This document shows, one piece after another, positions 37,360 through 55,016 of a stretch of DNA of 64,000 bases. The position numbers and the translations under genes were made by a program. Each line of letters opens with the position of its first letter. Position 1 is the first letter of the stretch. The stretch comes from Candidatus Gottesmanbacteria bacterium GW2011_GWA2_43_14. Its GTDB lineage: Bacteria; Patescibacteriota; Microgenomatia; 2-02-FULL-39-11. Location of the stretch: assembly GCA_000999095.1 (NCBI GenBank), contig LCFP01000002.1, positions 69,736 to 133,735 on the forward strand, given 5' to 3'. The notes beneath the pieces are model-generated. The model ran no database searches, had not been told where the DNA came from, and saw only the letters and a list, made by a program, of their open reading frames with translations.

Positions 37360-37922
37360 GAAGTAGCTGCCGGACTTTTCCTATATTTCAGGGAAATGGT
37401 CATGGTGTAACTGCCGTCCTTGTCACGCAAAATCCCCTGAGCTTTTATATCTGAAAACACGGCATCTATCTGCTTGTTTAAAAGCTCGCCTACAAAAACT
37501 TCCAGAGCCGTCAGGGAATAGGCTGTCAGGGAAAATGACATCTGTCCGTTGCGGTCGACAGTCAGTGTTTTTATATCAATCTCATCTGAATCTATCCCAT
37601 AGACTTCCGGTAAAGTATCGGCAACGGTACTGAAATTTTTAGCTAAAATTTTGTTGATCACATCAAGTATATTGAAAGTTGCCAGATATAAGCCTTCAGT
37701 CGCCTGGTAAGACGTTATTTTCTTTTCGCTGGAGGTTACTTCGGCTTTTAATTTGTTGTATTCGCTGGTATTCAACTTGAGATAAATCAGGGAAATGGAA
37801 TATAACAGGACAAACAATATAAGGCAGACAGCCGCGGTTACGGGGGCAAATTTTTTCAGCCTTTTCAATACAGGCAAGTCATCATCTTTCTCGATTATCA
37901 GATTGATTGTTTTCTTGCTCAT
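37356..37922 (-). CDS. Type IV pilus assembly protein PilN-like
   Basis: INLIIEKDD N-terminus (INLLP-like), a single TM, and a coiled-coil. Coupled to pilM. Confidence 0.5.
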   Translation of the reverse strand: MSKKTINLIIEKDDDLPVLKRLKKFAPVTAAVCLILFVLLYSISLIYLKLNTSEYNKLKAEVTSSEKKITSYQATEGLYLATFNILDVINKILAKNFSTVADTLPEVYGIDSDEIDIKTLTVDRNGQMSFSLTAYSLTALEVFVGELLNKQIDAVFSDIKAQGILRDKDGSYTMTISLKYRKSPAATS

Positions 37923-38944: not shown

Positions 38945-39004
38945 ATATTTAGTATCTAATCACCCGGCAACAATGTCAATCCGGCAAGGAAAAAATAACT
39001 CAGG

Positions 39005-39859: not shown

Positions 39860-42800
39860 GGTGATAAATCCTGCCAGTTCACCCTGGACCGGCCCAGGAA
39901 CGGCAATAGCTTTACCAAATAGCCTGGCTGGTATATGAACTGGTAGGTCGGTATATTCTGGTCAATAAAAGTCCTGGCAAAATTAAACCGTTTGGCATAA
40001 AGCATACCGTCAATGATTATCGGCAGATCGGATGAGGCTATACTGATAGTCTGGCTGCTGATGTAAAGCCCTGGAATCCGGCTGACATTGGCACCGATCT
40101 GGATATAGCCGTTAACAATAAATACCACAATGTCCTCAGGATCGGCAAGAGAAAAATTATCACTAATTTCCATAGTGCCGGAAACAAGCATCACTGTTAC
40201 ATCAGGACCGGCGGTACGGTTGCCGTCAAAAGACGGATCAAGTGTATATAATCCAGATCCCAGGTAAGCATAAACGGAATTTTGCTCATCCAAATCACCC
40301 GAACCTTCAGGAGTGGGGGTGGGAGCGGAAACATTGGGTAAAACAATAACGGTATACATCGATTTGCCCGTAGCTCCGTTTGTGCCGACCGTGACTGTGC
40401 CCGCCGGAAATTCTTTGGCATAAAGACGGAAATTTTTAGGTATATTTTCACTGTTAACAAGATAAAAACCCGTATCAGTCCAGCCGGAAAGCCAGGCGGG
40501 TTTAGGTGTAATAGTACTTTCATGAGCGACATAAGCGGTAACGTCAATATTGACTTCAAAGGTCACCAATGGTTCTGTAGTATAAGCCCGGGAATCATTG
40601 GCTGATTGTACCCAGGCAGCACCCAGGAATTCGGCAGGAATTGAGTTCAAAACATAAGTTCTGTCACCGAACTGGGTATCTCCTGTCTGTAAATTGCTTT
40701 TAATATGCCAGTCAACAGCATTGGCCATATCATTTACTGCCAAATTGGAAATAGCCAGGGGAGCCGGCGTGACTTCAGCCGGGGCATTGATTACACCGAT
40801 TACATTATTGTTTACACTTTTAGCCTTGTTTTTCAATGATTCCCAATAGTAGCTGAATGAATAGGCGTTGGTAAACGTCCCCGGAACTTCCCAGTCAATT
40901 GGAGCGGATGATCCCAAACCGTAGTTGCCGCTGCCGCTGTTGGACCAGATCAGGCCGGCTGAATAAGGATTTTCGACCGGAGTCGGCAGGAGATCAAGGA
41001 AGTACTTGCCGCTGGGTACGGGCTGATTTATCACTGGCTGATAGATATCGCCGCCGAGAATTTGCAGCCAGGCACCCAAGGTGGGTGTCGGTGTGACTGT
41101 CGGACTTGGGGGCACTGCTGTCGGTCCTCCCGGTGTCGGTGTATTTCCGTAATTTATCCTGGGGGCGGTGAAACTGCCTCCGGTATCGGATTTTTCAGAG
41201 ATATTGCCTGCTGAATCCTGAGTGGCCACTTCGGCATATAACTCCTGGCCGTCTTCAACAACCACTGTTATGGAAGTCTGATCTCCAATCCAGCCTGGAT
41301 CCCAGCTCTCTCCGGTCGAAGTCCAGAAGTAAGGATGGTAATTGACGGTATTGGCACAGCCCTCAGAAACAGTTTCAAACCAGGTGCATGTAAAAAAGGA
41401 TTCTCCTGTAACATAATTCTGGTAATCCAAAGTGCATACCGGCGGATCAGGCGGTTCAGGGGGAGTATAATCTAAAGAAAGCAACCTGGAAGGTGCCTGT
41501 CCCGAATCAGGGCAGGATGAAGACTGGGTTATGGCTGACCACCAGAATGACTCAGTCTGATTCAACTCCATCTCTCCCGGCGTCCAGACACTATCACCTG
41601 AAGGTATGACGGAATTCCCGTTTACGTCCAGTCCGTTTGATAAGAAAAAATGAGCCCAGACATTATCGCCGTTGGGATCTTCAACGTAAGCTGAAAAGTC
41701 AGGCTTAAAGTTCAGGCAGACATCGTGTTCCGGAGACTGCAAATCAGGTGTGGGTAAAGTTTGACATTCAGTCGGCGGTTCAATGGCTGAAGTCGGGGTT
41801 ACCTGGGCAGTCGGGGCAATTCCGGAAAGAGTCGGAGTCGGGGTGTTTTCAGGCAGGCCGCCGCCGGGTGGTGTCGGAGTCGGGGTGCCCGGCTGATAGG
41901 TTGGAGTTATGGTTATATAAGGAAAATCAACAATAACTTCACTGCCGGCCACGATAGCCATCTGGGGATTTGTATAATTGAGATAAGGTACTGAATTCGC
42001 TGGTTCCGATAAAAGCTCAACCGTATAAATACCGTCAATGGTATTACTAAAACGGTAATTGCCCAATATTCCGGAAATCTGGGAATTTTGACTGGTAGTG
42101 GAATTATAAAGTGTTCCGTACAAATTTATGCCTATTCCGCCGATTAATCCTTCTGAGGCTGCCGTAGACCTGTTTATATTATTATTGGTTTCGTTGTAAA
42201 GCCAACCGTAAATCTGGTATTGCGTGGGGGTCGGGGAGGAAGTCGGTTGCGGTGCAGGCCTAATTGCTAATCCGTTCATCACCCAGTCAGTATTTCCGGA
42301 AAACAGATGATTGACATTGTCTGAACCGGAAACAGCCAGCATACGGTCATGAATATAAAGACGTGTTCTTACACCCACAAAATCGGTGGCTCTCTGAGTG
42401 TAATCAGGATCAGCAGTCTGGATAGTTGTATTCCTGGCATCAGTAGCTGCGAATAAAACCGAATTCGGGGTCGTTGAAGTTAAAGTCAAAAGCGAATTGG
42501 TGTTATTAACACCTCCGGTACAGGTAGTATCATTCTGACCCAAGGTATTTGAACCGGCCCAGTTTTGCACCGGATTTGCCGGATCCGCCCCGGAATAGCC
42601 GGATACGGAGCCAACGACCTCAGAAACTGACACTCCATAATTAATGGTTACATTCCCATTAGCCGGAGAACCGAAGGCGGTCCAAATATCCATGCGACTG
42701 GCGCTGTTTGCTGAACACTGAGTTCTCCTCTTAGTCCAGGATAAACCTAACCCGCTGACAGCGGATACCGTTGATGTACCCCTGTTAGCAGCTGTCACGA

Positions 42801-43041
42801 CATACAGCCTGTTGGTACCGCCCGTAGCCGGACAGACCACCTGGGTGACATTTGTACCTTTACAGATCTGCGTAATTATGTGGGTAGGAATAATCGGTGT
42901 CGGTGTCGGTGCTGAAGTTATTTCAGGTATGGTTGGATATTGGGCTTGGGCTTGTCTGCCCCATGAGCGTGAAATCAATCCGGTTAAGAATACTATTACC
43001 ACTAATGGAATAATAGACAACCAATACCTTTTGCCAAGCAT
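39856..43041 (-). CDS. Large secreted surface protein with Pro/Thr-rich linkers; candidate pilus-associated adhesin (PilY1-like role).
   Basis: 1061 aa, N-terminal signal peptide, multiple PTPTPT linkers. Encoded immediately upstream of the PilX-like gene in the same operon. No catalytic motif recognised. Confidence 0.45.
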   Translation of the reverse strand: MLGKRYWLSIIPLVVIVFLTGLISRSWGRQAQAQYPTIPEITSAPTPTPIIPTHIITQICKGTNVTQVVCPATGGTNRLYVVTAANRGTSTVSAVSGLGLSWTKRRTQCSANSASRMDIWTAFGSPANGNVTINYGVSVSEVVGSVSGYSGADPANPVQNWAGSNTLGQNDTTCTGGVNNTNSLLTLTSTTPNSVLFAATDARNTTIQTADPDYTQRATDFVGVRTRLYIHDRMLAVSGSDNVNHLFSGNTDWVMNGLAIRPAPQPTSSPTPTQYQIYGWLYNETNNNINRSTAASEGLIGGIGINLYGTLYNSTTSQNSQISGILGNYRFSNTIDGIYTVELLSEPANSVPYLNYTNPQMAIVAGSEVIVDFPYITITPTYQPGTPTPTPPGGGLPENTPTPTLSGIAPTAQVTPTSAIEPPTECQTLPTPDLQSPEHDVCLNFKPDFSAYVEDPNGDNVWAHFFLSNGLDVNGNSVIPSGDSVWTPGEMELNQTESFWWSAITQSSSCPDSGQAPSRLLSLDYTPPEPPDPPVCTLDYQNYVTGESFFTCTWFETVSEGCANTVNYHPYFWTSTGESWDPGWIGDQTSITVVVEDGQELYAEVATQDSAGNISEKSDTGGSFTAPRINYGNTPTPGGPTAVPPSPTVTPTPTLGAWLQILGGDIYQPVINQPVPSGKYFLDLLPTPVENPYSAGLIWSNSGSGNYGLGSSAPIDWEVPGTFTNAYSFSYYWESLKNKAKSVNNNVIGVINAPAEVTPAPLAISNLAVNDMANAVDWHIKSNLQTGDTQFGDRTYVLNSIPAEFLGAAWVQSANDSRAYTTEPLVTFEVNIDVTAYVAHESTITPKPAWLSGWTDTGFYLVNSENIPKNFRLYAKEFPAGTVTVGTNGATGKSMYTVIVLPNVSAPTPTPEGSGDLDEQNSVYAYLGSGLYTLDPSFDGNRTAGPDVTVMLVSGTMEISDNFSLADPEDIVVFIVNGYIQIGANVSRIPGLYISSQTISIASSDLPIIIDGMLYAKRFNFARTFIDQNIPTYQFIYQPGYLVKLLPFLGRSRVNWQDLSP

Positions 43042-44884: not shown

Positions 44885-46048
44885 ATGAAAATCGCCATGG
44901 TTGTTTATGCCCAATATTCCCGCGATGCCAGAGTCAGGCGTTATGCCGAAAGCCTGGCAGGCAAAGGACACCAGGTTGATATTATTTGTTTAAAGGAGGA
45001 TTATTCACCGCAATATAAAAAGCTGAAGCTTTATAAGTTTCCTTTTCCCAGAAGAAGGAAAAACTTTTCCTGGTATTTTTTAGAGTACGGTTTATTTTTT
45101 TGCTATACTTTCGGTCTTCTGTCAATTCTCTCTTTGTTCAAAAAATATAAGATTGTCCATATTCACAATATGCCGGATTTCCTGGTTTTTACTGCCGTTA
45201 TGCCCAAATTCCGGGGCAGCCGGATCATTCTTGACATGCATGATCCCATGCCGGAACTGTTGATGACTAAATACCGTTTGAATCACTCCCACTGGCTGAT
45301 GAATTTGGTATATTTTTTGGAGAGGCAAGCCTTTATTTTCGCCGACAAAATAATAACTGCCAACAGTGAGTTTAAAAAGATATTTTTGGAAAGGCAGACT
45401 ATTTCCGCTGATAAGATTGAAGTCATACTGAATTACCCTGATCCCAAATTATTTAAACCCGTGAGCAGAAAAACGGCATCGGAAAATTTCATTTTAATGT
45501 ACATGGGAACAGTTGACGAGCGTTTCGGGCTGGATATCGCCTTGGAGGCAATCCCGGCAATTAAAAATAAAATTCCTCAAATCAAGTTGATTATCATCCC
45601 GAAAATATCCGGCGAGGGCAATTACTACAGCCAATTAGTGCAGCGTATTACCAAGCTGAAAATCGGACGGTATGTGGAAATACGTAAGCCGGTGGCGCTG
45701 GATGAAATCGCCAAAGAAATTCACCTGGCTGATATCGGGTTAACCTTGGTCAAAAAAAATCTTTTTACGGAAAAAATCTTACCTTTGAAACTGACGGAAT
45801 TTATGGCGGGCGGTATTCCCGTGATTGCCACAAGAACCAAACTACTGAGCAGATATTTTTCCGGCAAAATGATCTGTTATCTTACGGAAAATACTTCAGC
45901 GGAATTCAGCCGTAAAGTTCTGTTTCTATACCGGAATAAAAAACAAAGGGAATTATACGGCAAAAATGCCCTGTTGTTTTTCCGGAAATATAACTGGCAC
46001 ATGGAAGAAAAAAAATATTACCGCATAATCCGGACATTGACACAGTAA
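44885..46048 (+). CDS. Glycosyltransferase family 4 (GT-B fold)
   Basis: C-terminal E..GIPVIAT motif (LTEFMAGGIPVIATRT). TATAAT 8 nt upstream of the ATG. Confidence 0.7.
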   Translation: MKIAMVVYAQYSRDARVRRYAESLAGKGHQVDIICLKEDYSPQYKKLKLYKFPFPRRRKNFSWYFLEYGLFFCYTFGLLSILSLFKKYKIVHIHNMPDFLVFTAVMPKFRGSRIILDMHDPMPELLMTKYRLNHSHWLMNLVYFLERQAFIFADKIITANSEFKKIFLERQTISADKIEVILNYPDPKLFKPVSRKTASENFILMYMGTVDERFGLDIALEAIPAIKNKIPQIKLIIIPKISGEGNYYSQLVQRITKLKIGRYVEIRKPVALDEIAKEIHLADIGLTLVKKNLFTEKILPLKLTEFMAGGIPVIATRTKLLSRYFSGKMICYLTENTSAEFSRKVLFLYRNKKQRELYGKNALLFFRKYNWHMEEKKYYRIIRTLTQ

Positions 46049-47325
46049 TGACGTACTCCCGAATATTAAATCTTCTGATAAAAAAAAAACAGATAATAGT
46101 CAGTGCTGAAGGCGGCAGCATGCTGCCCGTACTTCATCCCGGTGATGTGCTGTATCTGACGAAAACCAATTTCTCAAAAGTCAATGAAGGGGAAATCATT
46201 TTTGCCAAAAAAAAAGGTAAATTTTTCATCCACAGGATAATTTATAAAGGGAAGAATTATCTTATCACCAAAGGAGACGCAAACCGTGTTTCAGACGGTA
46301 AAATTGCACCGGGTCAAATTTTTGCCAAACTGATTAAACTGAAAAGGCAAGGCCGGATTCTTTCTCCGGAATACTATAACCTCATCCAGTCCACCTATTA
46401 CATCAGGGAAATAAACCGTGTAATAAAGGCTTTTAAACGCCATCAGCTTGATTATGTGTTCCTAAAAGGTTTACCCCTTTATCTTTATCTTCAGAAGATG
46501 ATCCCATTGCGTTTCTATGCAGATTGTGATCTTTTGATCGCCCGGAAGGATTACCGGAAGGCAGCCTTTCTTTTGGAAAAAATAGGATTTAAATTCAATG
46601 ACCGGTCATTTTCCGGCCTCCATCGTCTGCTTAAAAAAAAACCGACCGAATATATGTTTATCAAGAAAAAAGGGGTTTTCCCGGTAGTTCTGGATATCCA
46701 CTTGGAACCGGTATTTTTAATGAACCAGTTAAGCGGGCTGGATTGCTTATATCCCCAACTTTACCTCGATAAATTATCCTCGGATTTTCTTAAAAAAAAG
46801 CAAGACGCCGTCATCAACAACAGTATGTTCAGACTGCTGTCTTCCTCTCATCAAATCATTTATCTTGCCCTTCATTTTTTCCATCACAATTTCAGGGGTT
46901 TTCACAGATTACAGCTTCTCCGGGATTCAGTTCAACATTATTCGGGACCATGGGAGAAACCGGCTGAAATGATTAAAAAATACAAGCTGGATAATTTCGT
47001 TTACCCTGCATTTGCGGCCGTTAAGCGCTTCTACCCGGGGACATTAACCGGCAAATACCTGACTGCTATAACTCCTTCGGCCGCAGTCTTAGATAAAACA
47101 AAAGCAATATTGAAGGATATTGAACTTTCTTCTGAAGAAAGCCAACTGAAAGAGGGAATCGAGAGGTTTATGAATATATTTCTGTTTTCCCCTCAGCCGA
47201 ATTTAAAAAAAATATCCGTATTCCTCAATCCGCAGGTTCTATATTCAATTTTATTCACAGTTTTTGAACAGCTGCAACATATTGACCGGTTGATATTTCT
47301 TAAGAAAAAATCCGCCGAATCGTAA
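46048..47325 (+). CDS. Fusion protein: an N-terminal SipW/Sec11-type (S26B) signal-peptidase-like domain without a TM anchor, plus a C-terminal PF14907-like nucleotidyltransferase domain.
   Basis: S26B motifs GGSMLPVLHPGDVLYL (Ser), FIHRIIY (His), ITKGDANRVSDG (Asp). The nucleotidyltransferase pattern FLKGLPLYLYLQKMIPLRFYADCDLLIARKDY..AAFLLEKIGF matches (hKG..Y...R...DxDLLV...A..LL...GF). TAATG-coupled to the upstream GT4. Confidence 0.55.
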   Translation: MTYSRILNLLIKKKQIIVSAEGGSMLPVLHPGDVLYLTKTNFSKVNEGEIIFAKKKGKFFIHRIIYKGKNYLITKGDANRVSDGKIAPGQIFAKLIKLKRQGRILSPEYYNLIQSTYYIREINRVIKAFKRHQLDYVFLKGLPLYLYLQKMIPLRFYADCDLLIARKDYRKAAFLLEKIGFKFNDRSFSGLHRLLKKKPTEYMFIKKKGVFPVVLDIHLEPVFLMNQLSGLDCLYPQLYLDKLSSDFLKKKQDAVINNSMFRLLSSSHQIIYLALHFFHHNFRGFHRLQLLRDSVQHYSGPWEKPAEMIKKYKLDNFVYPAFAAVKRFYPGTLTGKYLTAITPSAAVLDKTKAILKDIELSSEESQLKEGIERFMNIFLFSPQPNLKKISVFLNPQVLYSILFTVFEQLQHIDRLIFLKKKSAES

Positions 47326-47373
47326 TTGACGGGCAATGATTTATAGCCTATTCTGAGAGTAGTATGTATTAAT

Positions 47374-47934
47374 ATGGCTAAACTACTGAAAACAGCCTTT
47401 GTTATTCTATTGGTCATAAGTTTTATTGAGGTTTTTTATTATTTATTTTACTTGAATTCCTTTAAACTGCTGTTCTCCAAACCGGATACAGCTGATATCA
47501 GCGGGAAACAGGCTGTTAATGAAACGGAGCCTCCTGGTACTCCGGCTATATCGGTCACTCCTGCCGTTCATCCCGATGTATTAGAACGGCTGCGTAATTA
47601 TAAGTATGATCCCAAATCGAAAATGTCGATTAAAACTGAATTACAAACAGAGATAAAAGACATCGATTATGACGGCAGGCAAAGTGGAGGGGATTTTTAC
47701 CCGTTTGCCTTAAAAATCGTCACTACCTCCGGAAGAGATTTTTGGATGTACTTTCCTAATTTCTTATATCAAAAGGTAAAAGTCTACTCGAAAACTGACG
47801 GAGTAGATCAACCGCTGAAGCCTGGGGATCTAAAAATCGGGGATACTGTCCTGCTGGTAGAAACATATAATCCTCGTTTTGCTCCTGATAATCCTGAACA
47901 GGTTATTAGTTATGAAATATTCAGGATTCAATAG
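47374..47934 (+). CDS. Hypothetical membrane-anchored protein
   Basis: N-terminal TM (AFVILLVISFIEVFYYLF) and a Pro/Thr linker. No motif recognised. Confidence 0.35.
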   Translation: MAKLLKTAFVILLVISFIEVFYYLFYLNSFKLLFSKPDTADISGKQAVNETEPPGTPAISVTPAVHPDVLERLRNYKYDPKSKMSIKTELQTEIKDIDYDGRQSGGDFYPFALKIVTTSGRDFWMYFPNFLYQKVKVYSKTDGVDQPLKPGDLKIGDTVLLVETYNPRFAPDNPEQVISYEIFRIQ

Positions 47935-47939
47935 CCCAT

Positions 47940-48131
47940 ATGCCTCACAGTCGTAAAAGAAGTTCGTCTAAAAAATATAGTAGACCAAAATTAACCCTTT
48001 CCAAAGTAAAATTAAATCTGTTTTCATTTCCTTTGGAATATTTTCCGGATGAGGATTTTTTTTTAAATTCGGTTAATGCAGCAGTTTATTGTCCTGGTTT
48101 TTGTGATCCGGAAGCCTGCAATAAATGCTGA
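47940..48131 (+). CDS. Candidate 63-aa Lys/Arg-rich, C-terminally Cys-rich peptide (putative modified-peptide precursor), paralogous to the N-terminal part of 22101..22595.
   Basis: MPHSRKRSSSKKYSRPKLTLSKVKLNLFSFPLEYFPDEDFFLNSVNAAVYCPGFCDPEACNKC aligns to KKKYPIYRKPAIKSVKIKLNMFFNLYDEY..FNFIPEVNGELLACCGTCFSC. It overlaps the convergent HprK-like gene 3' end by 46 nt and contains a T9 run, so a spurious ORF cannot be excluded. Confidence 0.4.
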   Translation: MPHSRKRSSSKKYSRPKLTLSKVKLNLFSFPLEYFPDEDFFLNSVNAAVYCPGFCDPEACNKC

Positions 48132-48934
48132 TTCCCTTTCAAAAATAAATCCCATAGTTTTTGCCTATCAAGTCCCGAATGGAGGTCAAAAAATGTGTCA
48201 TTTTTATCAATAAAATCCAGCAAGTATTTCATCTGCTTTCCGGTATGACCGCTGTCCGTGAAAAAAACCCTGATCAATTTTTTCAGGACAAGCTGTTTGT
48301 CTTTTATTTTTTTAGACCGGTAATTCATGTCCTTGTGTAGAAAAAATAATTTACCCATTTTATAACGCCTGACGGATTTCCCGACCCATGCCTGTTTATC
48401 AATCATCGGAGCCTGATATAGAAAATAGTTATTTTTTTCTTTTTTGATTATAAGCGTATCATCTGCCAGCGGAAGACATTTTTCAGCCAGAAGGCGAAGG
48501 ATGGTGGATTTCCCCGCTCCTGATTTTCCCAAGAAAATATGAGCCTGATCATCAATATAAACAGCGGAACCGTGGAATATAAACCCTTTGTTCTCTGCCA
48601 GTAAATTCTGCAGAATAGTCCTTATGATGATGATAAGCTGCACAATTCCTATATGATAAAATGAAATTGCGGTATTCTTCCCTTTATTTTCATAAAAATT
48701 AATAAAGTGCTTGTTGCTTTTCTTTTCGCTTAAGACATCCATACCCAATCTGTCAATAAAATGTACGGTGGCATCCACGTGGATGTAGGTTTTTTTGACT
48801 ATAAAACCTCCCAGGGAAAATTCAACCTCTTTTATCAGATGATGCCGGGTGGAAGGCCAGTCTGTCGGATGGAAAACGAGTCTGAAGGTAAAGCCTGCAA
48901 TTTTAAGATAAACGGAGGAGTTTGACTGTTTCAT
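48086..48934 (-). CDS. HPr-kinase/phosphorylase-C-domain-like P-loop protein (putative peptide kinase)
   Basis: GFIFHGSAVYIDDQAHIFLGKSGAGKSTILRLLAEKCLPLADDTLII matches the Hpr_kinase_C Walker-A region. Coupled by a 4-nt overlap to the PqqD-like gene. Confidence 0.6.
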   Translation of the reverse strand: MKQSNSSVYLKIAGFTFRLVFHPTDWPSTRHHLIKEVEFSLGGFIVKKTYIHVDATVHFIDRLGMDVLSEKKSNKHFINFYENKGKNTAISFYHIGIVQLIIIIRTILQNLLAENKGFIFHGSAVYIDDQAHIFLGKSGAGKSTILRLLAEKCLPLADDTLIIKKEKNNYFLYQAPMIDKQAWVGKSVRRYKMGKLFFLHKDMNYRSKKIKDKQLVLKKLIRVFFTDSGHTGKQMKYLLDFIDKNDTFFDLHSGLDRQKLWDLFLKGNQHLLQASGSQKPGQ

Positions 48935-49248
48935 CCATGATCGGCTTTATTTCCTATACTGATGATGTTTTCTTTGGCTAATACTTTTAAAAAGTCATCG
49001 ACATCCCGTTTGGCCGTATCGTTATTCAAGCCGTATTCCGACTTAAGAAATAAAGTTATTTCTTCCTTTCCTTCCCCCTTTAACAGTCTTTTAAATATTT
49101 CCGAGGCGGTTTCATTCAGAGTTATCAGCAGGGATTTTTCTCCGTCAAAGATCATCGTCTTTTTGCCCAACTTCCTGCTTACGAATCCCTTGTTGACAGT
49201 GATTTTTTTCATGACTTTTCCTCGACTGATGTGATGAGCCCATCCCAT
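48931..49248 (-). CDS. PqqD-family protein (RiPP recognition element-like)
   Basis: ~105 aa; KKTMIFDGEKSLLITLNETASEIFKRLLKGEGKEEITLFLKSEYGL..AKRDVDDFLKVLAKENII follows the PqqD pattern (beta-strands then helices; ..L.D.E.G.YY.LN..A..IW.LL.G..T..EI...L...Y.V..E.A..DV..FL..L...GLI). Confidence 0.6.
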   Translation of the reverse strand: MGWAHHISRGKVMKKITVNKGFVSRKLGKKTMIFDGEKSLLITLNETASEIFKRLLKGEGKEEITLFLKSEYGLNNDTAKRDVDDFLKVLAKENIISIGNKADHG

Positions 49249-49976
49249 AAGATGACGTTTTTGAAAAATAAATTAATATTTTCTCCTGTTTTTATTTTGC
49301 TGATCTCGGTGAAATAATCAATACCGTAGATATCTTTTGCCGTCACCTCAACCGATATCTCCACATTGCTTCTGGCCTCAGTATTAAGGGTAGTCGGCAC
49401 AAGGTTGACGCTGATAATTTTTGCCATGACCTCACCCTTGTTATTGAGCATGACGTCATTGGGTTTAAATTCCTTGGCAATAAACGGCAGCTCATTGTCT
49501 TTAGCAACAGTCAGCAAAACCTGTTTTTTCTTGAATTTCGAGGGTTTCAAAGAAAGATAGGTGATAAAGCCCCGGTGTTTGAATTTACCGAAATTAAAAT
49601 TTACCCATTTGTTTAATTCAAGTGACTGGCCTTTATAAAAATAATTATCCTCCCTGTCTTTCTGGACAAAAAGCTTCAGCTCAAGTACCAGGTGCTTTCC
49701 ATGGCTGCCTCCCTCATATGATTCCACCTCAATTACTTCGGCTGTGGTACCGCCAAAAGCGGATTTTTCTTTGTTGCCCTTTTCAACCTGGTTTGCCACC
49801 CAGTAAGGGACGGCTACTTTTAAATCATCGCTTTCGGAAAATATTGCCCGGCCGTATAGTACTATACCGCTGCGGGATTTATTATAGAAAAAATAAATTA
49901 CAAACAGGGCAAAAACAAGAATCAACAGGCTGAAGAGATTATAGCGGGTCATAAGTGAAAAATTTTTAAGTTTCAT
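49209..49976 (-). CDS. Hypothetical membrane-anchored protein
   Basis: N-terminal TM (LFSLLILVFALFVIYFF). No motif recognised. Overlaps the PqqD-like gene start by 40 nt. Confidence 0.35.
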   Translation of the reverse strand: MKLKNFSLMTRYNLFSLLILVFALFVIYFFYNKSRSGIVLYGRAIFSESDDLKVAVPYWVANQVEKGNKEKSAFGGTTAEVIEVESYEGGSHGKHLVLELKLFVQKDREDNYFYKGQSLELNKWVNFNFGKFKHRGFITYLSLKPSKFKKKQVLLTVAKDNELPFIAKEFKPNDVMLNNKGEVMAKIISVNLVPTTLNTEARSNVEISVEVTAKDIYGIDYFTEISKIKTGENINLFFKNVILWDGLITSVEEKS

Positions 49977-51405
49977 ACTGCGGCTTATTGTATACCAAGA
50001 GCATTACTATAAGCAAAAAAAGGGTTTTCATCTGTCCTGTATGGAAAAAGGGGTTGACGTAGGAAATAACGATAAGTCCCAATAAACCCGCGTAGACTGC
50101 CAGTCCGATATCATCCGTCTCTGTTCTCTTCTGCATGTTTCTGACGACCGAACCCAGAAAAAGCAGAAACAGCAGAAGGCCGGGCAGTCCGGTTTCCGAG
50201 GCGATTTCCAGAAAAGTATTATGGATTTTATAAAATGCCCCCGGCTGTTCACTTTCAAAAATATTGGTCACGGGGTATAGGGCGTAAGTCTCAAGCGACC
50301 TGTTGAGTCCTGTGCCGAAAATATAATTCTTACTTATTAAATTAAAGGCCTCGATATCCAGTTTGACCCTGATTCCCATTGAACCGAATTCATCCAGGGA
50401 AACCGGGCTTGTATTGACTCGGGAGAAAAAATACGGTGACAGGATATAAAGTGAAAAAAATAAGGCTACTGCGGAAATCAGAACTTTTTTGTTCAGCCAG
50501 GCTTTTTTCTTAAACCAATAATAATTCCGGGAAAAAGGGCTTATCGGTATTAACAATAAATAAACGGTGATCAGCACAATCCAGGCAATCCGGCTGAAAG
50601 TAAATATCAAAACAAGCAATACCATGATTTTGGCCAAAGTCATCCACTGACTTTTATGCGGGTAATGAAGAAGCAGGGGGAAGACCGAGAGCAGAAAAGC
50701 GGCGAAAGCATTCGGATGTCCGAATGCCGCTGTGACCCTGAAAAGATTTATATTTTCGACAGCTGTGATTCCCGCCGGATTATAAAAAAGAACCGATTCC
50801 AATACCAGTCCGAGCGGATGCCTGAAAAAAAATTGAAGCAAGGCGATAAGGGATTGAAAAAGAAGCATAAAAATAAGCAGAATCCGGACTTGGGGTAAGT
50901 CTTTTTCGCTTAAATTCAGCCTGAGCAAATAATAGAGGGCAGCCATTTCAAACAACTGGATAAGTCCGATAAAGGAATTGTGGCTTATATTGACGTAAAA
51001 TGAGATGCCGGACCAGACAAAAAAGGCAAACAAAGCCAAATCAGCCGTCTCAAATTTTCGCAGCCTTTTTTTATATGAAACCAAAGCCAGAAACGGCACA
51101 AACACCGTCAGCGAAGAAATCCACCAGCCTGAACCCATGTTCAGGCTGGCAGGCTCCAGCCTGAAAAAAGCCGCACCCAGGCTGATATCTGAAAATATAG
51201 CCAGGATGACAACAAATACTAATGCTTTGGCAATGCTTTTAAAATAATTCAGAAAAATAAAATAGGTTAAAAAGAATGAAAAAAAATAGAAAGGCTTATT
51301 GGGGGCCAAAAAGAGAAGGAGGAAATGCAATGACAGACCAAAAATAAACAAATTTACATCCACCCCTGAAAACCTCTTCAACTGCTTTTTAATGATTCCG
51401 GACAT
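49966..51405 (-). CDS. O-antigen ligase/polymerase-like (Wzy_C family) polytopic membrane protein
   Basis: About 10-12 TM helices with a periplasmic loop; general Wzy/WaaL architecture. Confidence 0.5.
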   Translation of the reverse strand: MSGIIKKQLKRFSGVDVNLFIFGLSLHFLLLFLAPNKPFYFFSFFLTYFIFLNYFKSIAKALVFVVILAIFSDISLGAAFFRLEPASLNMGSGWWISSLTVFVPFLALVSYKKRLRKFETADLALFAFFVWSGISFYVNISHNSFIGLIQLFEMAALYYLLRLNLSEKDLPQVRILLIFMLLFQSLIALLQFFFRHPLGLVLESVLFYNPAGITAVENINLFRVTAAFGHPNAFAAFLLSVFPLLLHYPHKSQWMTLAKIMVLLVLIFTFSRIAWIVLITVYLLLIPISPFSRNYYWFKKKAWLNKKVLISAVALFFSLYILSPYFFSRVNTSPVSLDEFGSMGIRVKLDIEAFNLISKNYIFGTGLNRSLETYALYPVTNIFESEQPGAFYKIHNTFLEIASETGLPGLLLFLLFLGSVVRNMQKRTETDDIGLAVYAGLLGLIVISYVNPFFHTGQMKTLFLLIVMLLVYNKPQYET

Positions 51406-51406
51406 C

Positions 51407-53248
51407 TCAGAGTATATTTAGCTGACCAAGCCATTTTTTAAAACACAAAAGAGACCATATCAGATAAGCATGGTCATTAATGCCTTCTGCATGTTCCTTT
51501 AATACTTTATTAATATAGGACATGTCGAACAAATCGGATCCGCTTAATACGCCGTCAAAAAATTCATCCCTGACCTGCTTTTCATACTTACCTCTGAACC
51601 AGGAAGCCAAAGGCGGTAAAAAACCGTGCTTTTGCCTGATGGGCAAACCGGGAAATTTCCGGGCGATAATTTTACGCATGATATATTTACGCTGCAGGCC
51701 GTTAATTTTTAAACGGTCAGGCAGCTGGGCAGACAACTCAAAGAGTGTATGGTCGAGAAGGGGAGAACGCACTTCCAGGGAATGTGCCATGGAAGCAATA
51801 TCCACTTTGGGCAGCAGGTAATCAGCTAAATAGGATTTCCTGTCATAAGCCAGGACGTCGTCCAAAGAATTTAATTGCATCTTCTGAAAATGTTTTCGAT
51901 TTTTTTTAAGCAGCAGGCCGACTTCCTTTTCCCCTGTCAGAGCTGAAGCTGATAAATAAGCATTTACACGATCTTTCCCCAATGCCGGCAGGTATTTTCC
52001 GCTGACAACAGACAGGGACCTGATTTTCAATATCCGGTAAAAAATCTTTAAAAGAGATACTGCTTCTTTTTGCCAGGGCAGACTATTTAACTGACGATGG
52101 TATTTCCAGAATAAATAACGCGGGTATCCGGCAAAATTTTCATCACCGCCGTCTCCGTTTATAGCTACCCTGACCATTTTACCCGTCTTCTTCATTAACA
52201 TCCAGGTGGGCAGCATTGACGGATCGGCAAAAGGTTCTTCATAACTTTTAACAATATCTCCCAGGAATTTAAGACTGTTTTCTCTCACGGTCAATTCATG
52301 ATGTGAACTGCCGATGGCAGCGGCAATATTTCTGGCATACGGCAATTCGTTATATTCATTTTCAGCAAAACCGACGGAGAATGTGTTGATTTTTTTGCCT
52401 GAAACGGAGGCGGCAATGGCACAGACCAGGCTGGAATCCATGCCTCCAGATAAATGAAAACCCAGAGGTACATCACTCTCCAGTCTGATTTTCACACATT
52501 CAACCAGTTTATCGGACAGGATTTCTATCCATTCATTTTCAGATAAGTTAAGTTTGTGCGAATAGTCAATATCCCAATATTTGTGCAATGATTGTTTTCC
52601 CGAAGAAGAAACAACCAAATAATGGGCAGGAGGCAATTTAAAAATATTTTTATAACCGGTCTGCGGTGATTTTACATATCCGTTGGTAAAATATTCCTGT
52701 AAAACCGTTTCATCAAAGATGCTTGGGATACCCGGCTGGGAGATAAGGGCTTTCAGCTCTGAAGCGAAAGCAAAAAAATTGTCGTCAAAATAATATTTCA
52801 GAGGCTTTTTTCCCAGTCTGTCCCTGGCCAGAAAAAGTTTATTCAACCTCCCGTCCCAGACCACAAAGGCAAACATGCCCCTTAAAAAGGCCAAGCACTT
52901 TATCCCGTAATGAAGATACATGGCCAAGAGTACCTCGCTGTCACCTCTCGATTTAAAACTGTACTTATTTTTAAGCTTCTCCCTTAAATTTCTGTAGTTG
53001 TATATTTCGCCGTTAAAAACCAAAACCACTTTGCCGTCGGGTGAAATCATCGGCTGATGACCGGCAGCTGACAAATCAAGGATGGCCAGTCTCGTGGAAA
53101 CCAGCCAAATTTTCGCTGATAAAAATGATCCGGCATCATCAGGTCCCCGGTGATGTAATTTGCTCAGGACGGAGCGGATAGCGGATTTTTCAGCTTGAGA
53201 GTTTACTTCCCTGGTCTTAAAATAAAGTTTACCGGCAATACCGCACAT
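51407..53248 (-). CDS. asnB: Asparagine synthetase B-family glutamine amidotransferase
   Basis: N-terminal nucleophile MCGIAG, PP-loop SGGMDSS, about 612 aa. Start set at the MCGI ATG (53248), not the extended track start. Confidence 0.85.
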   Translation of the reverse strand: MCGIAGKLYFKTREVNSQAEKSAIRSVLSKLHHRGPDDAGSFLSAKIWLVSTRLAILDLSAAGHQPMISPDGKVVLVFNGEIYNYRNLREKLKNKYSFKSRGDSEVLLAMYLHYGIKCLAFLRGMFAFVVWDGRLNKLFLARDRLGKKPLKYYFDDNFFAFASELKALISQPGIPSIFDETVLQEYFTNGYVKSPQTGYKNIFKLPPAHYLVVSSSGKQSLHKYWDIDYSHKLNLSENEWIEILSDKLVECVKIRLESDVPLGFHLSGGMDSSLVCAIAASVSGKKINTFSVGFAENEYNELPYARNIAAAIGSSHHELTVRENSLKFLGDIVKSYEEPFADPSMLPTWMLMKKTGKMVRVAINGDGGDENFAGYPRYLFWKYHRQLNSLPWQKEAVSLLKIFYRILKIRSLSVVSGKYLPALGKDRVNAYLSASALTGEKEVGLLLKKNRKHFQKMQLNSLDDVLAYDRKSYLADYLLPKVDIASMAHSLEVRSPLLDHTLFELSAQLPDRLKINGLQRKYIMRKIIARKFPGLPIRQKHGFLPPLASWFRGKYEKQVRDEFFDGVLSGSDLFDMSYINKVLKEHAEGINDHAYLIWSLLCFKKWLGQLNIL

Positions 53249-53258
53249 AAAAAAAGTT

Positions 53259-54101
53259 ATGCGATTCTCACCAGCCATTATACTACTGATTTTACCGGTG
53301 GCAGTCACCTATATCTGGTTTTCCGCCGGAGATTATCATACACTCCACCGGGATTATGAGACATTCGCTGACTCGATTAAATACCGGCAACTGCCTAACT
53401 GTACCGATAAAACCGTTTTTACGGACTTGGAAATCGCCTTAAAAGAATCTTCCTCTGTCTGCACACTGTTATTGCCTAATCAGAAATTGTCGGAGGTACC
53501 TGAAGCAATAACGGAACTGGTAAATCTGGAACGTCTGGATTTGCATGAAAACCAACTGACATTTCTTCCTTCGGGACTGGAACGTCTCCGTGCCTTGAAA
53601 ACCCTGGATTTGGGGGCCAACCGCTTCATTGAATTTCCGGAAATATTGGGCATTTTACCGAAATTGGAAACTCTTGAGATTGCCTTCAACGGTCTGACGG
53701 ATATTCCTCCTTTTGTCTCCCGTTTGTATAATCTGAGAATTTTATCATTAAATAATAACCTGTTAACCGGGTTTCCGGCTGCAGTTTCAGGATTGGCTGG
53801 TCTGGAAATTTTAGAACTCGGAAACAACAAAATCACCGTCATAGACAGCTCTATCGGGTTCGCGAACGGCCTTAAAGAATTATATTTATACGGAAATCAT
53901 CTGACCGGATTGCCGGACAATATTAAAAATCTGAAAAATCTGGAAGTACTCAATCTACAGAATAACCGTTTAAGTTCGATTCCTGAAGCGCTTTTTTCGA
54001 TGCCGCAACTCACTGAATTAAATCTAAGGGGAAATAATATTAAGCCTGAATCTATAAATGAATTTCAGAATAAGCTGCCTGAGACTGATCTGATTTTTTG
54101 A
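53259..54101 (+). CDS. Leucine-rich repeat (LRR) protein with N-terminal signal/TM
   Basis: At least 9 consecutive LxxLxLxxNxL repeats (LERLDLHENQLTFLP, LKTLDLGANRFIEFP, LEILELGNNKITVI, ...). Confidence 0.75.
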   Translation: MRFSPAIILLILPVAVTYIWFSAGDYHTLHRDYETFADSIKYRQLPNCTDKTVFTDLEIALKESSSVCTLLLPNQKLSEVPEAITELVNLERLDLHENQLTFLPSGLERLRALKTLDLGANRFIEFPEILGILPKLETLEIAFNGLTDIPPFVSRLYNLRILSLNNNLLTGFPAAVSGLAGLEILELGNNKITVIDSSIGFANGLKELYLYGNHLTGLPDNIKNLKNLEVLNLQNNRLSSIPEALFSMPQLTELNLRGNNIKPESINEFQNKLPETDLIF

Positions 54102-54155: not shown

Positions 54156-55016
54156 ATGTCCGAAAAAAAATACCTAATCCTCACCGTTGTTTTCATTTTC
54201 CTATCAGTTATCGCCGGTATATCCTATGTCTTTATAAAAAACAGTCAACAGCCGCTTCAGCTGGCTGAAAATACGGAAACTGCTGACGGGGCGCAGGCAC
54301 TGGAAAATTGTAACGATGATACGCTTTATGACTGGGACAGCATGGATAAAGCTTTGGAGAAACCGGACTCTGTCTGCAAATTGGATATCAGTAAACATGA
54401 TGTGACTGAAGTTGTAGCTGATGTTTTTCAATTTCCCAATCTTGAAGTACTAATCGCCGAAAACAATTTAATTGAATCCATTCCTGACCAGCTGGAGACT
54501 TTGACGAAGCTTAAAAGCGTTGACCTCAGTAACAATAAACTCCAGGAATTCCCTCCGGTTTTATTGCGAATGCCTAACCTTCAATATTTGGATCTGGGAG
54601 GAAACCAGATAGCTGCTATACCGGCAGGCATCAGCAGTCTGACCAACCTCTATAAACTGGACATGAAAGAAAATCTGATAACCGAAGTACCAGCGGAAAT
54701 CGGTAGCCTGACCAGTTTGGAAACCCTGGAATTAAGCTATAACAACATAAACCTGGTCAGTGCAGATATAGGAAATTTAACAGCTTTGTGGGAATTGTTC
54801 CTGGGGGATAACAGTCTGAGCGCTTTGCCCTCCGAATTAGGTAATTTATCAAATCTTAAAGTATTTTATCTGAGTAATAATCAATTCACTTCGGTTCCAG
54901 AAGTTATCAAAGCCATGAGCGGGCTGGTTGAACTCCATCTGGAAGGCAATCCCTTAAATCAGGATGATGTGTCGGCATTAAAGAATTCCCTGCCCGGTGC
55001 TCAGGTAACCTTCTGA
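54156..55016 (+). CDS. Leucine-rich repeat (LRR) protein, membrane-anchored, paralog of the preceding gene
   Basis: N-terminal TM, then ~9 LRRs (LKSVDLSNNKLQEFP, LQYLDLGGNQIAAIP, ...). Promoter TTGACA-N17-TATACT at 54120-54148, 7 nt upstream of the ATG. Confidence 0.75.
   Translation: MSEKKYLILTVVFIFLSVIAGISYVFIKNSQQPLQLAENTETADGAQALENCNDDTLYDWDSMDKALEKPDSVCKLDISKHDVTEVVADVFQFPNLEVLIAENNLIESIPDQLETLTKLKSVDLSNNKLQEFPPVLLRMPNLQYLDLGGNQIAAIPAGISSLTNLYKLDMKENLITEVPAEIGSLTSLETLELSYNNINLVSADIGNLTALWELFLGDNSLSALPSELGNLSNLKVFYLSNNQFTSVPEVIKAMSGLVELHLEGNPLNQDDVSALKNSLPGAQVTF

Follow-up and report, generated by a model that had tools for sequence, protein, structure and literature searches.

Lasso peptide leaders bear a YxxPxL motif (PMC10368454). 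A lasso precursor can be phosphorylated by an HprK-family kinase, with an uncharacterised NTP transferase needed for the addition of hexose to the phosphate (PMC6993621), and some lasso clusters encode the nucleotidyltransferase as a fusion with the B2 leader protease (PMC8498205). In CPR bacteria, Sharrar et al. (2020; PMC7298704) reported linear azol(in)e peptide (LAP) clusters containing YcaO, a nitroreductase and a "peptidase" from 31 Microgenomates genomes. We compared these systems with a group of genes at 46 to 49 kb of a 64-kb stretch of DNA (the window). These genes are a real, conserved and uncharacterised peptide-maturation system of Microgenomates bacteria, and they probably form a lasso-related but cyclase-less RiPP-type maturation locus of Gottesmanbacteria (CPR, Microgenomates) in which an S26B peptidase takes the place of the B2 protease. 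The RiPP-type character, already put forward in the original prediction for this DNA, is supported by a precursor family with a lasso-like leader, by a lasso-like PqqD profile and by recurrent linkage of the genes.

The fusion, PqqD and HprK-like genes

The four open reading frames that had been singled out as adjacent (fusion, small peptide, HprK-like and PqqD genes) are all in place, except that a conserved gene, p186 (47374-47934, plus strand), sits between the fusion and the small reading frame. The fusion gene (46048-47325, plus strand) encodes 425 amino acids and is proposed to supply both a leader peptidase and a tailoring enzyme. A Sec11/SipW-type S26B serine peptidase domain (residues ~11-105, nt 46078-46362) is followed by a pol-beta-type PF14907 nucleotidyltransferase domain (residues 114-329, nt 46387-47034) and then by a helical C-terminal region. 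Both predicted domain assignments are firmly supported: PF14907 scored 80.8 bits (cut-off 31.2), Peptidase_S24 scored 24.1 bits (cut-off 23.3), and SEC11C and SEC11A were the top PDB sequence matches. The score against TIGR02228 (archaeal/ER-type signal peptidase I; E 1.7e-13) was narrowly below its cut-off (50.8 versus 51.85). In a 25-sequence alignment, Ser24 was present in all sequences covering that column, His62-Arg63, Gly76, Asp83-Gly84, Asp159 and Asp161 were invariant, and Asp77 was nearly so. No transmembrane-like segment was found in the fusion (KD-19 maximum, 1.35), bearing out the claim that its peptidase domain has no membrane anchor, and the structure prediction that had been suggested yielded a confident model in which the S26B and nucleotidyltransferase folds were both recovered. 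The fusion family is discrete, with approximately 200 clusters at 50% identity, and all named homologues and loci belonged to Microgenomates or unclassified Patescibacteria.

The PqqD-family RiPP recognition element (48931-49248, minus strand) is a firm assignment as well, with PF05402 scoring 46.4 bits (cut-off 23.4). Its top NCBIfam match was the lasso PqqD chaperone, and the PqqD profile matched TbiB1 (5v1u) and TfuB1 (6jx3) at E 1.3e-8 versus E 0.11 for PqqD proper; this lasso B1-like protein matches the lasso leader-binding proteins best. An ATGA overlap of 4 nt joins its gene to the HprK-like gene, as expected from the translational coupling that had been predicted.

The HprK-family (ScmC-like) P-loop protein (48086-48934, minus strand) is the proposed precursor kinase. 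The original assignment to Hpr_kinase_C was weak in Pfam (E 0.011, under the cut-off) but consistent with the matches to TIGR00679 (E 1.5e-6) and to the ScmC model (E 1.6e-4). A profile of 36 HprK-like sequences matched HPr kinase/phosphatase 1ko7 at E 1.3e-4 over 82 aligned residues, and the H..S, GxSGxGKST and ADD motifs are conserved and collinear. A homologue in locus L004 bears the precomputed family PF27840 ScmC. The HprK assignment stayed below all curated cut-offs, which we count against our main reading.

The precursor peptide family

The 63-amino-acid reading frame at 47940-48131 (plus strand; hypothetical protein UV73_C0002G0122), which had been proposed as a small peptide gene, belongs to a real and conserved precursor family with at least 46 distinct members in 39 related loci (E-values as low as 5e-22 among 15,266 ORFs searched). 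The window precursor matched the family HMM at E 2.4e-11, and only two reading frames within the 64-kb window matched the family, each adjoining an HprK-like gene. Members have in common a Y-x-x-P-x-(I/L) leader and an L-L-Ala junction that hardly varies; their cores are hypervariable. Met1, Tyr13 and Pro16 were invariant in the precursor alignment and Ala47 was found in over 90% of it; 41 of 45 sequences had the junction Ala, with Leu or Val and then Leu, Tyr or Phe before it. In the window precursor, the leader motif is YSRPKL (residues 13-18, nt 47976-47993), the junction is Ala47 (nt 48078-48080) and the core is AVYCPGFCDPEACNKC (nt 48081-48128), whose C-terminal CNKC also occurs in the precursor of locus L007. 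The Cys-rich C terminus that had been taken as a hallmark is found in the window peptide and often in the family, but other core types occur besides it; some precursors carry a self-cleaving Hint or S74 domain at the C-terminal end.

As described originally, the precursor gene lies between the fusion and the HprK-like and PqqD genes, but it is more than wedged in: the two convergent genes, precursor and HprK-like, share 46 nt at the 3' end of the latter. That its Cys-rich tail falls within this overlap, and that the family profile had only 6 matches in a large protein database, would fit a chance frame antisense to the terminal part of the HprK-like gene, with the enzymes acting on some other substrate. 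We regard this as very improbable: homologues in the 39 loci usually have no overlap and keep both the leader and the place after p186, the same overlap arrangement recurs in locus L011, and the overlapped stretch is a non-conserved tail extension of the HprK-like protein, 13 amino acids above the family median, whose extra length is the source of the overlap.

The precursor gene starts 5 nt past the stop codon of p186, with which it forms a cassette. The p186 protein (186 amino acids) consists of an N-terminal transmembrane anchor joined through a disordered Pro-rich linker to a beta domain of approximately 110 amino acids, in which no residue is invariant across the family. It is encoded just upstream of almost all precursors, the precursor directly following a p186 homologue in 37 of 48 cases. 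Missing from the original prediction were p186, the operon context of glycan genes, the second module and the YcaO-bearing relatives described below.

Linkage, the second module and surrounding genes

Linkage was counted for genes within 6 kb of the fusion at the 32 fusion loci with at least 5 kb on both sides. PqqD was present at 28 of these, the HprK-like gene at 24, p186 at 21 and the precursor at 19, and the fusion and PqqD genes were convergent and usually overlapping. The linkage of fusion, PqqD, HprK-like and precursor genes recurs over dozens of Microgenomates loci. Against our main reading, the closest syntenic Gottesmanbacteria loci (L001-L003 and L006) retain the fusion, yet PqqD, HprK-like and precursor genes were absent within 8-10 kb of it.

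A further copy of the system, though only a partial one, occupies 19966-26471 of the window. It begins with a PqqD gene remnant of 32 N-terminal codons and then a stop (19966-20064, plus strand) and a second HprK-like (ScmC-like) paralogue (20085-20885, plus strand; ScmC E 5.9e-6), with 33% identity to the product of 48086-48934 (E 5e-42). On the minus strand lie a second precursor of 164 amino acids (22101-22595; family HMM E 2e-15), a HemK/PrmC-like SAM methyltransferase immediately downstream of it (20878-22077), which is a candidate tailoring enzyme, and a p186 paralogue (25881-26471). The second precursor has the leader YRKPAI ... ELLA, the core CCGTCFSC (nt 22434-22457) and, following the core, a self-cleaving Peptidase_S74 domain at residues 55-113 (nt 22257-22433; PF13884, 43.8 bits versus a cut-off of 22).

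In 15 related loci, a YcaO and a nitroreductase-type gene lie beside p186, the precursor and the HprK-like gene, and clusters of that type are already known from published work as CPR LAP clusters (PMC7298704). Variable tailoring genes next to precursors, such as these two and the methyltransferase in the window, are typical of RiPP clusters. The YcaO-bearing relatives, the 31 Microgenomates genomes with such clusters and the truncated PqqD of the second module could mean that the window locus is a decayed YcaO-type LAP cluster that has lost its cyclodehydratase and dehydrogenase and now performs leader processing only, or nothing. Neither YcaO nor a nitroreductase/dehydrogenase gene was found in the 64-kb window. 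The decayed-cluster account is decidedly unlikely, as most loci have no YcaO, many long contigs among them, and none of the five core genes at 46-49 kb is disrupted, their catalytic residues being conserved. Core style tends to differ too: YcaO-linked cores are often Gly/Ser/Cys-rich with an A-Q-S/T-G start, whereas those at YcaO-less loci are mostly multi-Cys or 3-6 residues long.

Upstream, PqqD and the HprK-like gene share a minus-strand run with p255 (49209-49976, transmembrane-anchored), a Wzy_C protein (49966-51405) and an AsnB-type amidotransferase (51407-53308), the genes from 49209 to 53308 being spaced by at most 60 nt or overlapping. These three are cell-envelope glycan context and have no assigned part in peptide maturation; p255 was linked to the fusion in 22 of the 32 loci. 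PqqD and the HprK-like gene are predicted from this run to be co-transcribed with glycan genes, and a link to envelope biosynthesis is therefore possible. The peptide might then be a carrier, primer or glycosylation target in glycan or glycoprotein assembly, the kinase and nucleotidyltransferase-fold domain building a phosphodiester-linked sugar on it and a neighbouring phosphoglycosyl transferase and Wzy_C (O-antigen-ligase/PglL-type) extending or transferring the glycan. We judge this unlikely, though it is the alternative to be taken most seriously. The association may be mere inherited synteny within one lineage, no Bac_transf homologue was found in the 64-kb window, many cores have no Ser or Thr for glycosylation, and the hypervariable cores, several cassettes per locus and YcaO/dehydrogenase partners resemble secreted RiPPs.

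The same run would also allow a cryptic lasso cluster with the asparagine-synthase homologue (51407-53308) as its macrolactam cyclase, given the lasso-like RRE, the YxxPxL in the leader and an Asp at the eighth core residue from Val49 (ninth from Ala48), within ring-forming range. We give this hardly any weight. The protein keeps a Met-Cys-Gly-Ile glutaminase N terminus, passed the asparagine-synthase model (434 bits versus a cut-off of 267) and failed the lasso cyclase models (256 versus 525 and 55 versus 300), and only 7 of 75 loci showed it linked to the fusion. Asp or Glu at core positions 7-9 is not conserved in the family, leader position -2 is not Thr, and a B2 protease is missing. The original statement that the locus has no B2 protease, cyclase or ABC exporter was correct, in that neither a B2 protease nor an ABC exporter nor a qualifying cyclase is present there. 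No exporter was found near the locus within the window, and this too counts against our main reading.

Proposed maturation route and comparison with known systems

In the lasso-related, cyclase-less route that we favor, the lasso-B1-like PqqD protein would bind the 63-amino-acid precursor through its Y-x-x-P-x-L leader, and the HprK-family enzyme would, more speculatively as regards acceptor and chemistry, phosphorylate the bound precursor. No conserved hydroxyl residue was found in the precursor cores, the cores AICC, KLCC, VPEC and DVPR having none and the window core having no Ser or Thr; therefore a Ser/Thr kinase step cannot be universal. The PF14907 domain might then place a hexose or nucleotide on the phosphate, a speculation made by analogy with PsmK and PsmN of pseudomycoidin. 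PsmN may be a PF14907 member; the two share a structural match to ANT(2'') 4xje. The cytoplasmic Sec11-type S26B domain would cut off the leader after the L-L-Ala junction, in the role of the B2 protease. Leader removal by this domain is plausible: P1 of the junction is Ala in 41 of 45 sequences, P3 is Leu or Val, and lasso clusters are known in which a nucleotidyltransferase is fused to the B2 protease, which is not homologous to S26B. Finally, the membrane-anchored p186 might, speculatively, act as a cognate binding or immunity partner of the precursor.

With the kinase/nucleotidyltransferase lasso clusters (paeninodin pade, pseudomycoidin psm and Bradymonas bsf) the locus has in common a discrete PqqD-type RRE, a Y-x-x-P-x-L leader, an HprK-family kinase and an uncharacterised nucleotidyltransferase-fold tailoring enzyme. 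Unlike them, it lacks both a macrolactam cyclase and a B2 protease of the transglutaminase type, and whereas lasso fusions join the nucleotidyltransferase to B2, here it is joined to a non-homologous Sec11-type S26B serine peptidase. The leaders are longer than lasso leaders, with approximately 35 residues from Tyr to the junction, and have Leu rather than Thr at position -2, and the hypervariable cores show no conserved Ser at the C terminus.

The CPR LAP clusters come from the same phylum-level group, Microgenomates, and resemble the 15 YcaO-bearing relatives, but the window lacks their YcaO and dehydrogenase. The 2020 description (PMC7298704) makes no mention of PqqD, HprK-like, PF14907, p186 or a shared leader, and its "peptidase" may correspond to the fusion. 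The ScmC/ScmD pair of the SynChlorMet cassette (NCBIfam/TIGRFAM definitions) likewise combines an HprK-like P-loop protein with a PqqD-family protein, and ScmC was the top specific NCBIfam match of both window HprK-like paralogues, but these reached 21-26 bits versus a cut-off of 125 and have no radical SAM/SPASM partners. The HprK-related kinase A model and its PqqD model had no match among the window proteins at E <= 0.1. Compared with the cytoplasmic or non-canonical S26 peptidases SodX (the Ni-SOD maturation protease) and SipA (a pilus chaperone), the fusion has a Sec11/SipW-type catalytic signature, Ser/His with a GDxN..D box, and its S26B domain shares a polypeptide chain with a nucleotidyltransferase and is genetically linked to an RRE.

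Domain content of the fusion, PqqD, and HprK-like proteins

The four open reading frames (ORFs) flagged in the original prediction were all present in the ORF list. The fusion of an S26B signal-peptidase domain to a PF14907 nucleotidyltransferase (NTase) domain occupies 46048-47325 (plus strand, 425 aa) and is followed on the same strand by a gene for a 186-aa protein (p186, 47374-47934) and by the 63-aa ORF p63, the candidate precursor (47940-48131). On the minus strand are the genes for the HPr kinase-like (HprK-like) protein (48086-48934, 282 aa) and the PqqD-family protein (48931-49248, 105 aa), and the ATGA overlap on which their suggested coupling was based is present in the sequence. 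On that strand, PqqD is preceded by the gene for a TM-anchored 255-aa protein (p255, 49209-49976), which is preceded in turn by a Wzy_C gene (49966-51405) and an asparagine synthase-type gene (AsnB, 51407-53308); the run AsnB, Wzy_C, p255, PqqD, HprK has only overlaps or gaps of no more than 60 nt. Two of the window's proteins are 100% identical to database entries UV73_C0002G0121 and UV73_C0002G0122. Just beyond the asparagine synthase-type gene are tandem leucine-rich-repeat proteins (53259-54101 and 54156-55016), each with an N-terminal hydrophobic segment, and this pair is also kept in syntenic Gottesmanbacteria loci. Type IV pilus assembly genes lie within 36625-43041 (PilM, 37919-38944; PilO, a weak match, 36625-37359), followed by a gene for a 1,061-aa Pro/Thr-rich protein with no Pfam match, and these adjoin a Wzy_C+TPR protein gene and the GT4 gene abutting the fusion.

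The fusion scored above cut-off for PF14907 (Pfam, 80.8 bits) and Peptidase_S24 (24.1 bits) and did not pass the NCBIfam model for archaeal/ER-type signal peptidase I (TIGR02228, E 1.7e-13; 50.8 versus a cut-off of 51.85) or the SipW model (16.8 versus 190). Among PDB sequences, SEC11C (E 9.5e-6) and SEC11A were matched. Residue conservation was read from a 25-sequence alignment, in which the catalytic Ser24 of the G-x-S-M-x-P box (Ser24-Met-Leu-Pro in the window) was found in all sequences covering that column; His62-Arg63, Gly76, Asp83, and Gly84 were invariant and Asp77 was near-invariant, a Sec11/SipW-type signature that places the Ser in an SM.P box and the His in an HR[VI] box, together with the GDNN..D box of S26B enzymes. 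In the NTase part, Gly141, Asp159, Asp161, and Asp216 were invariant, and the PF14907 score above gathering was thus accompanied by the pol-beta G[S/x]...DxD...D catalytic carboxylates. The AlphaFold model of the fusion was confident (pLDDT 89.5, pTM 0.87). Its NTase domain was matched by MenT1 (14.8), ANT(2'') 4xje (12.2), LnuA (11.6), and FKRP (8.3), with 4xje ranking fourth among matches to the fusion model, and its peptidase domain by SipA (13.2), LexA (11.8), E. coli SPase I (9.9), and SEC11A (7.6, 30% identity). No TM-like segment was found in the fusion, so that it lacks the membrane anchor of an S26B signal peptidase. The domain scores, residues, PDB matches, structure model, and absent TM-like segment therefore show that the fusion had been correctly described as S26B::PF14907 with no membrane anchor. 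Judged by its sequence, the protein would work like an S26B peptidase, yet would not be a signal peptidase proper. The NTase domain has a MenT/AbiEii-like fold, which prompted a toxin-antitoxin reading; this was rejected, as it leaves unexplained the peptidase fusion, the linkage to a PqqD-type RiPP recognition element (RRE), and the precursor family.

A database search returned more than 200 full-length homologues of the fusion; those with names came from Gottesmanbacteria or Patescibacteria and were annotated "hypothetical," "nucleotidyltransferase family," or "signal peptidase I." When 1.84 billion cluster representatives were searched exhaustively, 200 matched at an E value of ≤1e-30, and nearly all of those listed were 380 to 450 aa long. 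Many database gene calls (P0012, P0031, P0035, P0098, and others) begin at the Met (residue 25 of the query) that immediately follows the catalytic Ser and so lose the active-site serine of the S26 domain, presumably because the true start codon was overlooked. The literature searched, of which coverage was incomplete, yielded no description of an S26B::PF14907 fusion.

The PqqD protein belongs to the family to which it had been assigned (PF05402, 46.4 bits versus a gathering score of 23.4). A profile of 34 PqqD sequences matched the lasso leader-binding proteins TbiB1 (5v1u) and TfuB1 (6jx3) over the full length at an E value of 1.3e-8, versus 0.11 for PqqD proper. The HPr-kinase-C-like assignment of its neighbor held for motifs and profile comparison but not for the family models, since both Hpr_kinase_C (E 0.011; 15.8 bits versus 33.3) and TIGR00679 (E 1.5e-6; 27.7 versus 240) fell below cut-off. 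The protein carries the collinear His...GxSGxGKS P-loop...ADD motifs of the HPr kinase/phosphatase family, with H121, S123, G141-K142-S143-T144, and D158-D159 conserved among 36 sequences, and its profile aligned with 1ko7 across 82 residues (E 1.3e-4). ScmC was matched at an E value of 1.6e-4, with the two window paralogues scoring 21.1 and 25.8 bits against the TIGR04249 cut-off of 125, and no radical SAM gene appeared in the census of neighboring genes. Neither model of the HprK-related kinase A system (TIGR04352 and TIGR04353) matched at an E value of ≤0.1, and only HprK_rel_B was found (E 0.0034); PF27840 was recorded for a homologue of the HprK-like protein only. Scanning with PADLOC returned nothing beyond general similarities to P-loop and methyltransferase proteins, indicating that no known defense system is involved.

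The precursor family and the p186 cassette

When p63 was compared to the ORFs of 75 related loci, its matches adjoined HprK-like genes. An iterated profile collected 49 ORFs from 39 loci, with E values down to 5e-22 among 15,266 ORFs. In their alignment, Met1, Tyr13, and Pro16 were invariant within the leader consensus M-K-K-x-x-Y-x-K-P-x-I-x-x-K-K-I-x-x-N-x-F, and an Ala at the leader-core junction (Ala47 in p63) was near-invariant (41 of 45 sequences), preceded by L/V and then L/Y/F. The sequences C-terminal of the junction Ala were mutually unrelated and could be sorted into four styles: long cores with multiple Cys residues, exemplified by the AVYCPGFCDPEACNKC of the window; Gly/Ser/Cys-rich cores; cores of only 3 to 6 residues (TLIR, SVIS, AICC, and KLCC); and short cores followed by a folded domain. 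A conserved leader and a variable core are encoded with an RRE and a peptidase, as in RiPP pathways generally. No description of this precursor family was found in the literature searched, which was incompletely covered.

The overlap of p63 with the HprK-like gene raised the alternative that p63 is a chance ORF. The 46-nt overlap lies within a C-terminal tail of the HprK-like protein that extends 13 residues beyond the family median and is not conserved. A locus designated L011 has the same convergent arrangement (precursor at 11160-11354, plus strand; HprK-like gene at 11300-12154, minus strand), and there a 43-residue unconserved tail of the HprK-like protein is read from the strand opposite the Cys-rich core that the adjoining precursor gene encodes. 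In addition, the precursor of locus L007 shares a C-terminal CNKC with that of the window. On these observations and the conserved leader of the family, a chance ORF was rejected, and the 46 distinct members in 39 loci bear out the claim that p63 is a real gene. For a synonymous/nonsynonymous test of the overlapped core, the sole close relative was L076, which is from the same organism and identical in DNA save for a 72-nt deletion in p186. The precursor profile had six matches in a set of 5.8 billion proteins, where short sequences fall short of significance.

Some precursors are fused to Hint domains that begin a few residues past the junction. Four scored above Pfam cut-offs (L047, 2088-2654, minus strand; L050, 6713-7270, minus; L016, 1731-2327, plus; and L027, 3459-4037, plus), and one was weak (L059, 4932-5513, minus). 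As read from the sequences, these domains have Cys1 and a terminal His-Asn with no nucleophile at +1 and are thus of the cleavage rather than the splicing type, which would imply release of the peptide with a thioester or free C terminus.

A partial second copy of the system lies at 19966-26471, where the G+C content is 0.30 to 0.40 versus about 0.42 to 0.49 elsewhere in the window. It contains a 32-codon PqqD remnant (19966-20064), a second HprK-like paralogue (20085-20885; 33% identity, E 5e-42), a HemK-like methyltransferase (20878-22077), a second precursor (22101-22595, minus strand; E 2e-15), and a p186 paralogue (25881-26471). The second precursor has the same leader and the core CCGTCFSC, after which a Peptidase_S74 domain begins at Ser55 (43.8 bits). 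By the precedent of that family, the second precursor would be cleaved just before Ser55. The region also holds a GDSL-like protein and a LamG-domain protein.

The p186 protein consists of a TM helix at the N terminus, a linker that is disordered, and a beta domain without any invariant residue; its structure model was moderate, with only weak likeness to OB folds, and it is not an enzyme. A p186 homologue lies immediately upstream of, and on the same strand as, 37 of 48 precursor genes, the gap being 5 nt in the window, and several loci have two or three p186-precursor cassettes per enzyme set. This one-to-one pairing with hypervariable precursors suggests that p186 is a cognate binding or immunity protein. 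Over some 940 nt, the short metagenome contig L076 matches the window exactly save for its in-frame 72-nt deletion (window 47665-47736), which takes out 24 residues of the beta domain and reflects either variation within the population or an artifact of assembly.

Linkage across related loci and the glycan gene context

A fusion-alignment scan of 185,579 species genomes gave 71 loci, and all those that were informatively titled came from Microgenomates lineages or unclassified Patescibacteria. Many TPA MAG records with the fusion (L008, L010, L012, L014, and others) are titled "uncultured Gammaproteobacteria," probably a taxonomic mislabel. Linkage was counted with iterated profiles within 6 kb of the fusion in the 32 loci having at least 5 kb on each side of it. 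PqqD was present in 28 of these loci, the HprK-like gene in 24, p255 in 22, p186 in 21, and the precursor in 19, so that the neighborhood is conserved. In the commonest layout, the fusion (plus strand) converged on PqqD (minus strand), and the HprK-like gene lay next to them; elsewhere the HprK-like gene had moved beside the p186-precursor cassette, with PqqD remaining next to the fusion.

We also clustered the remaining genes lying up to 4 kb from those of the system and scanned representatives. The recurrent partners were Wzy_C (34 loci), the phosphoglycosyl transferase Bac_transf (29 loci), the nitroreductase family (15 loci), YcaO (14 loci), an ABC exporter (9 loci), and sulfatase (7 loci). 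Bac_transf was directly upstream of the HprK-like gene or PqqD, on the same strand and within 60 nt, in 20 of 61 loci, and Wzy_C was directly upstream of either gene in 7 of 61. This association may reflect glycosylation of the peptide or a link between it and envelope assembly, which is the main rival to, or extension of, RiPP maturation; alternatively, it may be inherited synteny. In the closest syntenic Gottesmanbacteria loci (L001 to L003 and L006), the fusion is retained between Wzy_C and GT4 genes, and no PqqD, HprK-like, or precursor gene was found within 8 to 10 kb. The sulfatase genes adjoin the fusion in their seven loci, and AbiEii-type nucleotidyltransferase genes lie near the system in eight, sometimes in the PqqD gene run; AbiEii or sulfatase genes recurred in L008, L012, L015, L022, L062, and L067.

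Proposed pathway and comparison with known systems

The precursor family with its conserved leader and junction, the lasso-type RRE, and the linked peptidase with intact catalytic residues are well supported. ER-type signal peptidases follow a (-3,-1) preference, with which the Ala at P1 and Leu/Val at P3 of the junction are compatible, and cleavage of the leader after the junction Ala is plausible. To our knowledge, within the literature searched, this would be the first S26B signal-peptidase domain to serve as a cytoplasmic RiPP leader peptidase. The case for the roles of the kinase and NTase steps is weak. No hydroxyl residue is conserved in the precursor cores, and some cores have none at all, so the acceptor must be something other than a core side chain, unless only some precursors undergo these steps. 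Leader Tyr13 carries the sole hydroxyl that is invariant across the family, and contact with the RRE is the simpler explanation for it. The window core contains neither Ser nor Thr, and on this ground we rejected a lanthipeptide-like route, in which kinase action is followed by elimination and Cys addition.

Taken together, the above-described results support and extend the RiPP-type interpretation, and we conclude that the system carries out RiPP maturation that depends on an RRE and includes lasso-type accessories. It is unusual in its S26B::NTase fusion, its precursors with self-cleaving domains, its p186 cassette, and a distribution that to date is confined to Microgenomates and unclassified Patescibacteria. 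It is conceivable, if somewhat unlikely, that it constitutes a new, cyclase-less RiPP class, so far found only in those groups and descended from or sister to the lasso peptides, in which the leader is removed by a Sec11-type serine peptidase that is cytoplasmic and joined to an NTase-fold enzyme resembling PsmN, the cores are hypervariable, some C termini are freed by Hint or S74 self-cleavage, and the product is decorated with a phospho-sugar or nucleotide and tied to the co-transcribed cell-surface glycan machinery. Patescibacteria (CPR) have tiny genomes with few reported biosynthetic clusters, and retention of the system in many Microgenomates genomes, some of which have two or more such loci, and the presence of several precursor cassettes at a locus indicate that the product is probably important for an episymbiotic or competitive lifestyle. 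The Hint- or S74-fused precursors suggest an unexplored route to releasing or activating a RiPP C terminus. The PqqD and HprK-like pair recurs in several uncharacterized systems, and a tractable precursor family offers a handle on its role. Having no YcaO, lasso cyclase, or radical SAM gene, the window form is unlikely to be recognized by rule-based genome mining.

In 15 related loci, a YcaO and/or nitroreductase-type gene lies directly beside the p186, precursor, and HprK-like genes (L014, L022, L026, L027, L038, L041, L042, L047, L050, L059, L062, L063, L067, L071 with nitroreductase only, and L074). Homologues of YcaO, the nitroreductase, the relatives' ABC exporter, and Bac_transf were found nowhere in the 64-kb window, which therefore lacks the YcaO, usually with an FMN dehydrogenase, that stands beside the precursor in LAP/TOMM clusters. 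No E1-like or ThiF-like YcaO partner was among the recurrent neighbor families, and PqqD, perhaps also the HprK-like protein, might thus partner YcaO; the combination of PqqD, HprK, and YcaO was not described in the literature searched, as far as that coverage extended. Compared by description, the related loci with both of these genes look like the "LAP" clusters reported in 31 Microgenomates genomes, with YcaO, nitroreductase, a "peptidase," and an 84-aa precursor (Sharrar et al., PMC7298704), but that report does not mention PqqD, HprK-like, PF14907, or p186 parts.

The likeness to kinase-containing lasso clusters noted at the outset was supported. The locus combines a B1-type RRE with the YxxPxL motif conserved in lasso leaders (PMC10368454). 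In the pseudomycoidin pathway, the HprK-family PsmK phosphorylates the precursor, and PsmN, an "uncharacterised NTP transferase" whose reported structural resemblance to ANT(2'') 4xje is limited, is required for adding one or two hexoses to the phosphate (PMC6993621); in several lasso clusters, the nucleotidyltransferase is fused to the B2 leader protease (PMC8498205). With these precedents, the RRE profile match and leader motif indicate that the locus has lasso-type parts. The predicted lack of a B2 protease and cyclase was likewise upheld, as domain scans of the locus revealed no transglutaminase-type B2 domain. A lasso reading with AsnB as the cyclase was rejected: AsnB passed TIGR01536 (434 versus 267), failed the lasso cyclase models NF033535 (256 versus 525) and NF033561 (55 versus 300), retains the Cys nucleophile at its glutaminase N terminus (…FFMCGIAG), and showed linkage to the fusion in just 7 of the 75 loci. 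Leader position -2 is Leu/Tyr/Phe, not the Thr (or Ile/Val) of lasso leaders, and an Asp/Glu at core position 7 to 9 is not conserved in the precursor family. The window locus thus resembles lasso pathways in its B1 protein, leader motif, kinase, and protease::NTase architecture and differs from them in its non-homologous S26B protease domain and lack of a cyclase; if this reading is true, it represents a clean non-homologous replacement of the lasso B2 protease inside the same protease::NTase fusion architecture.
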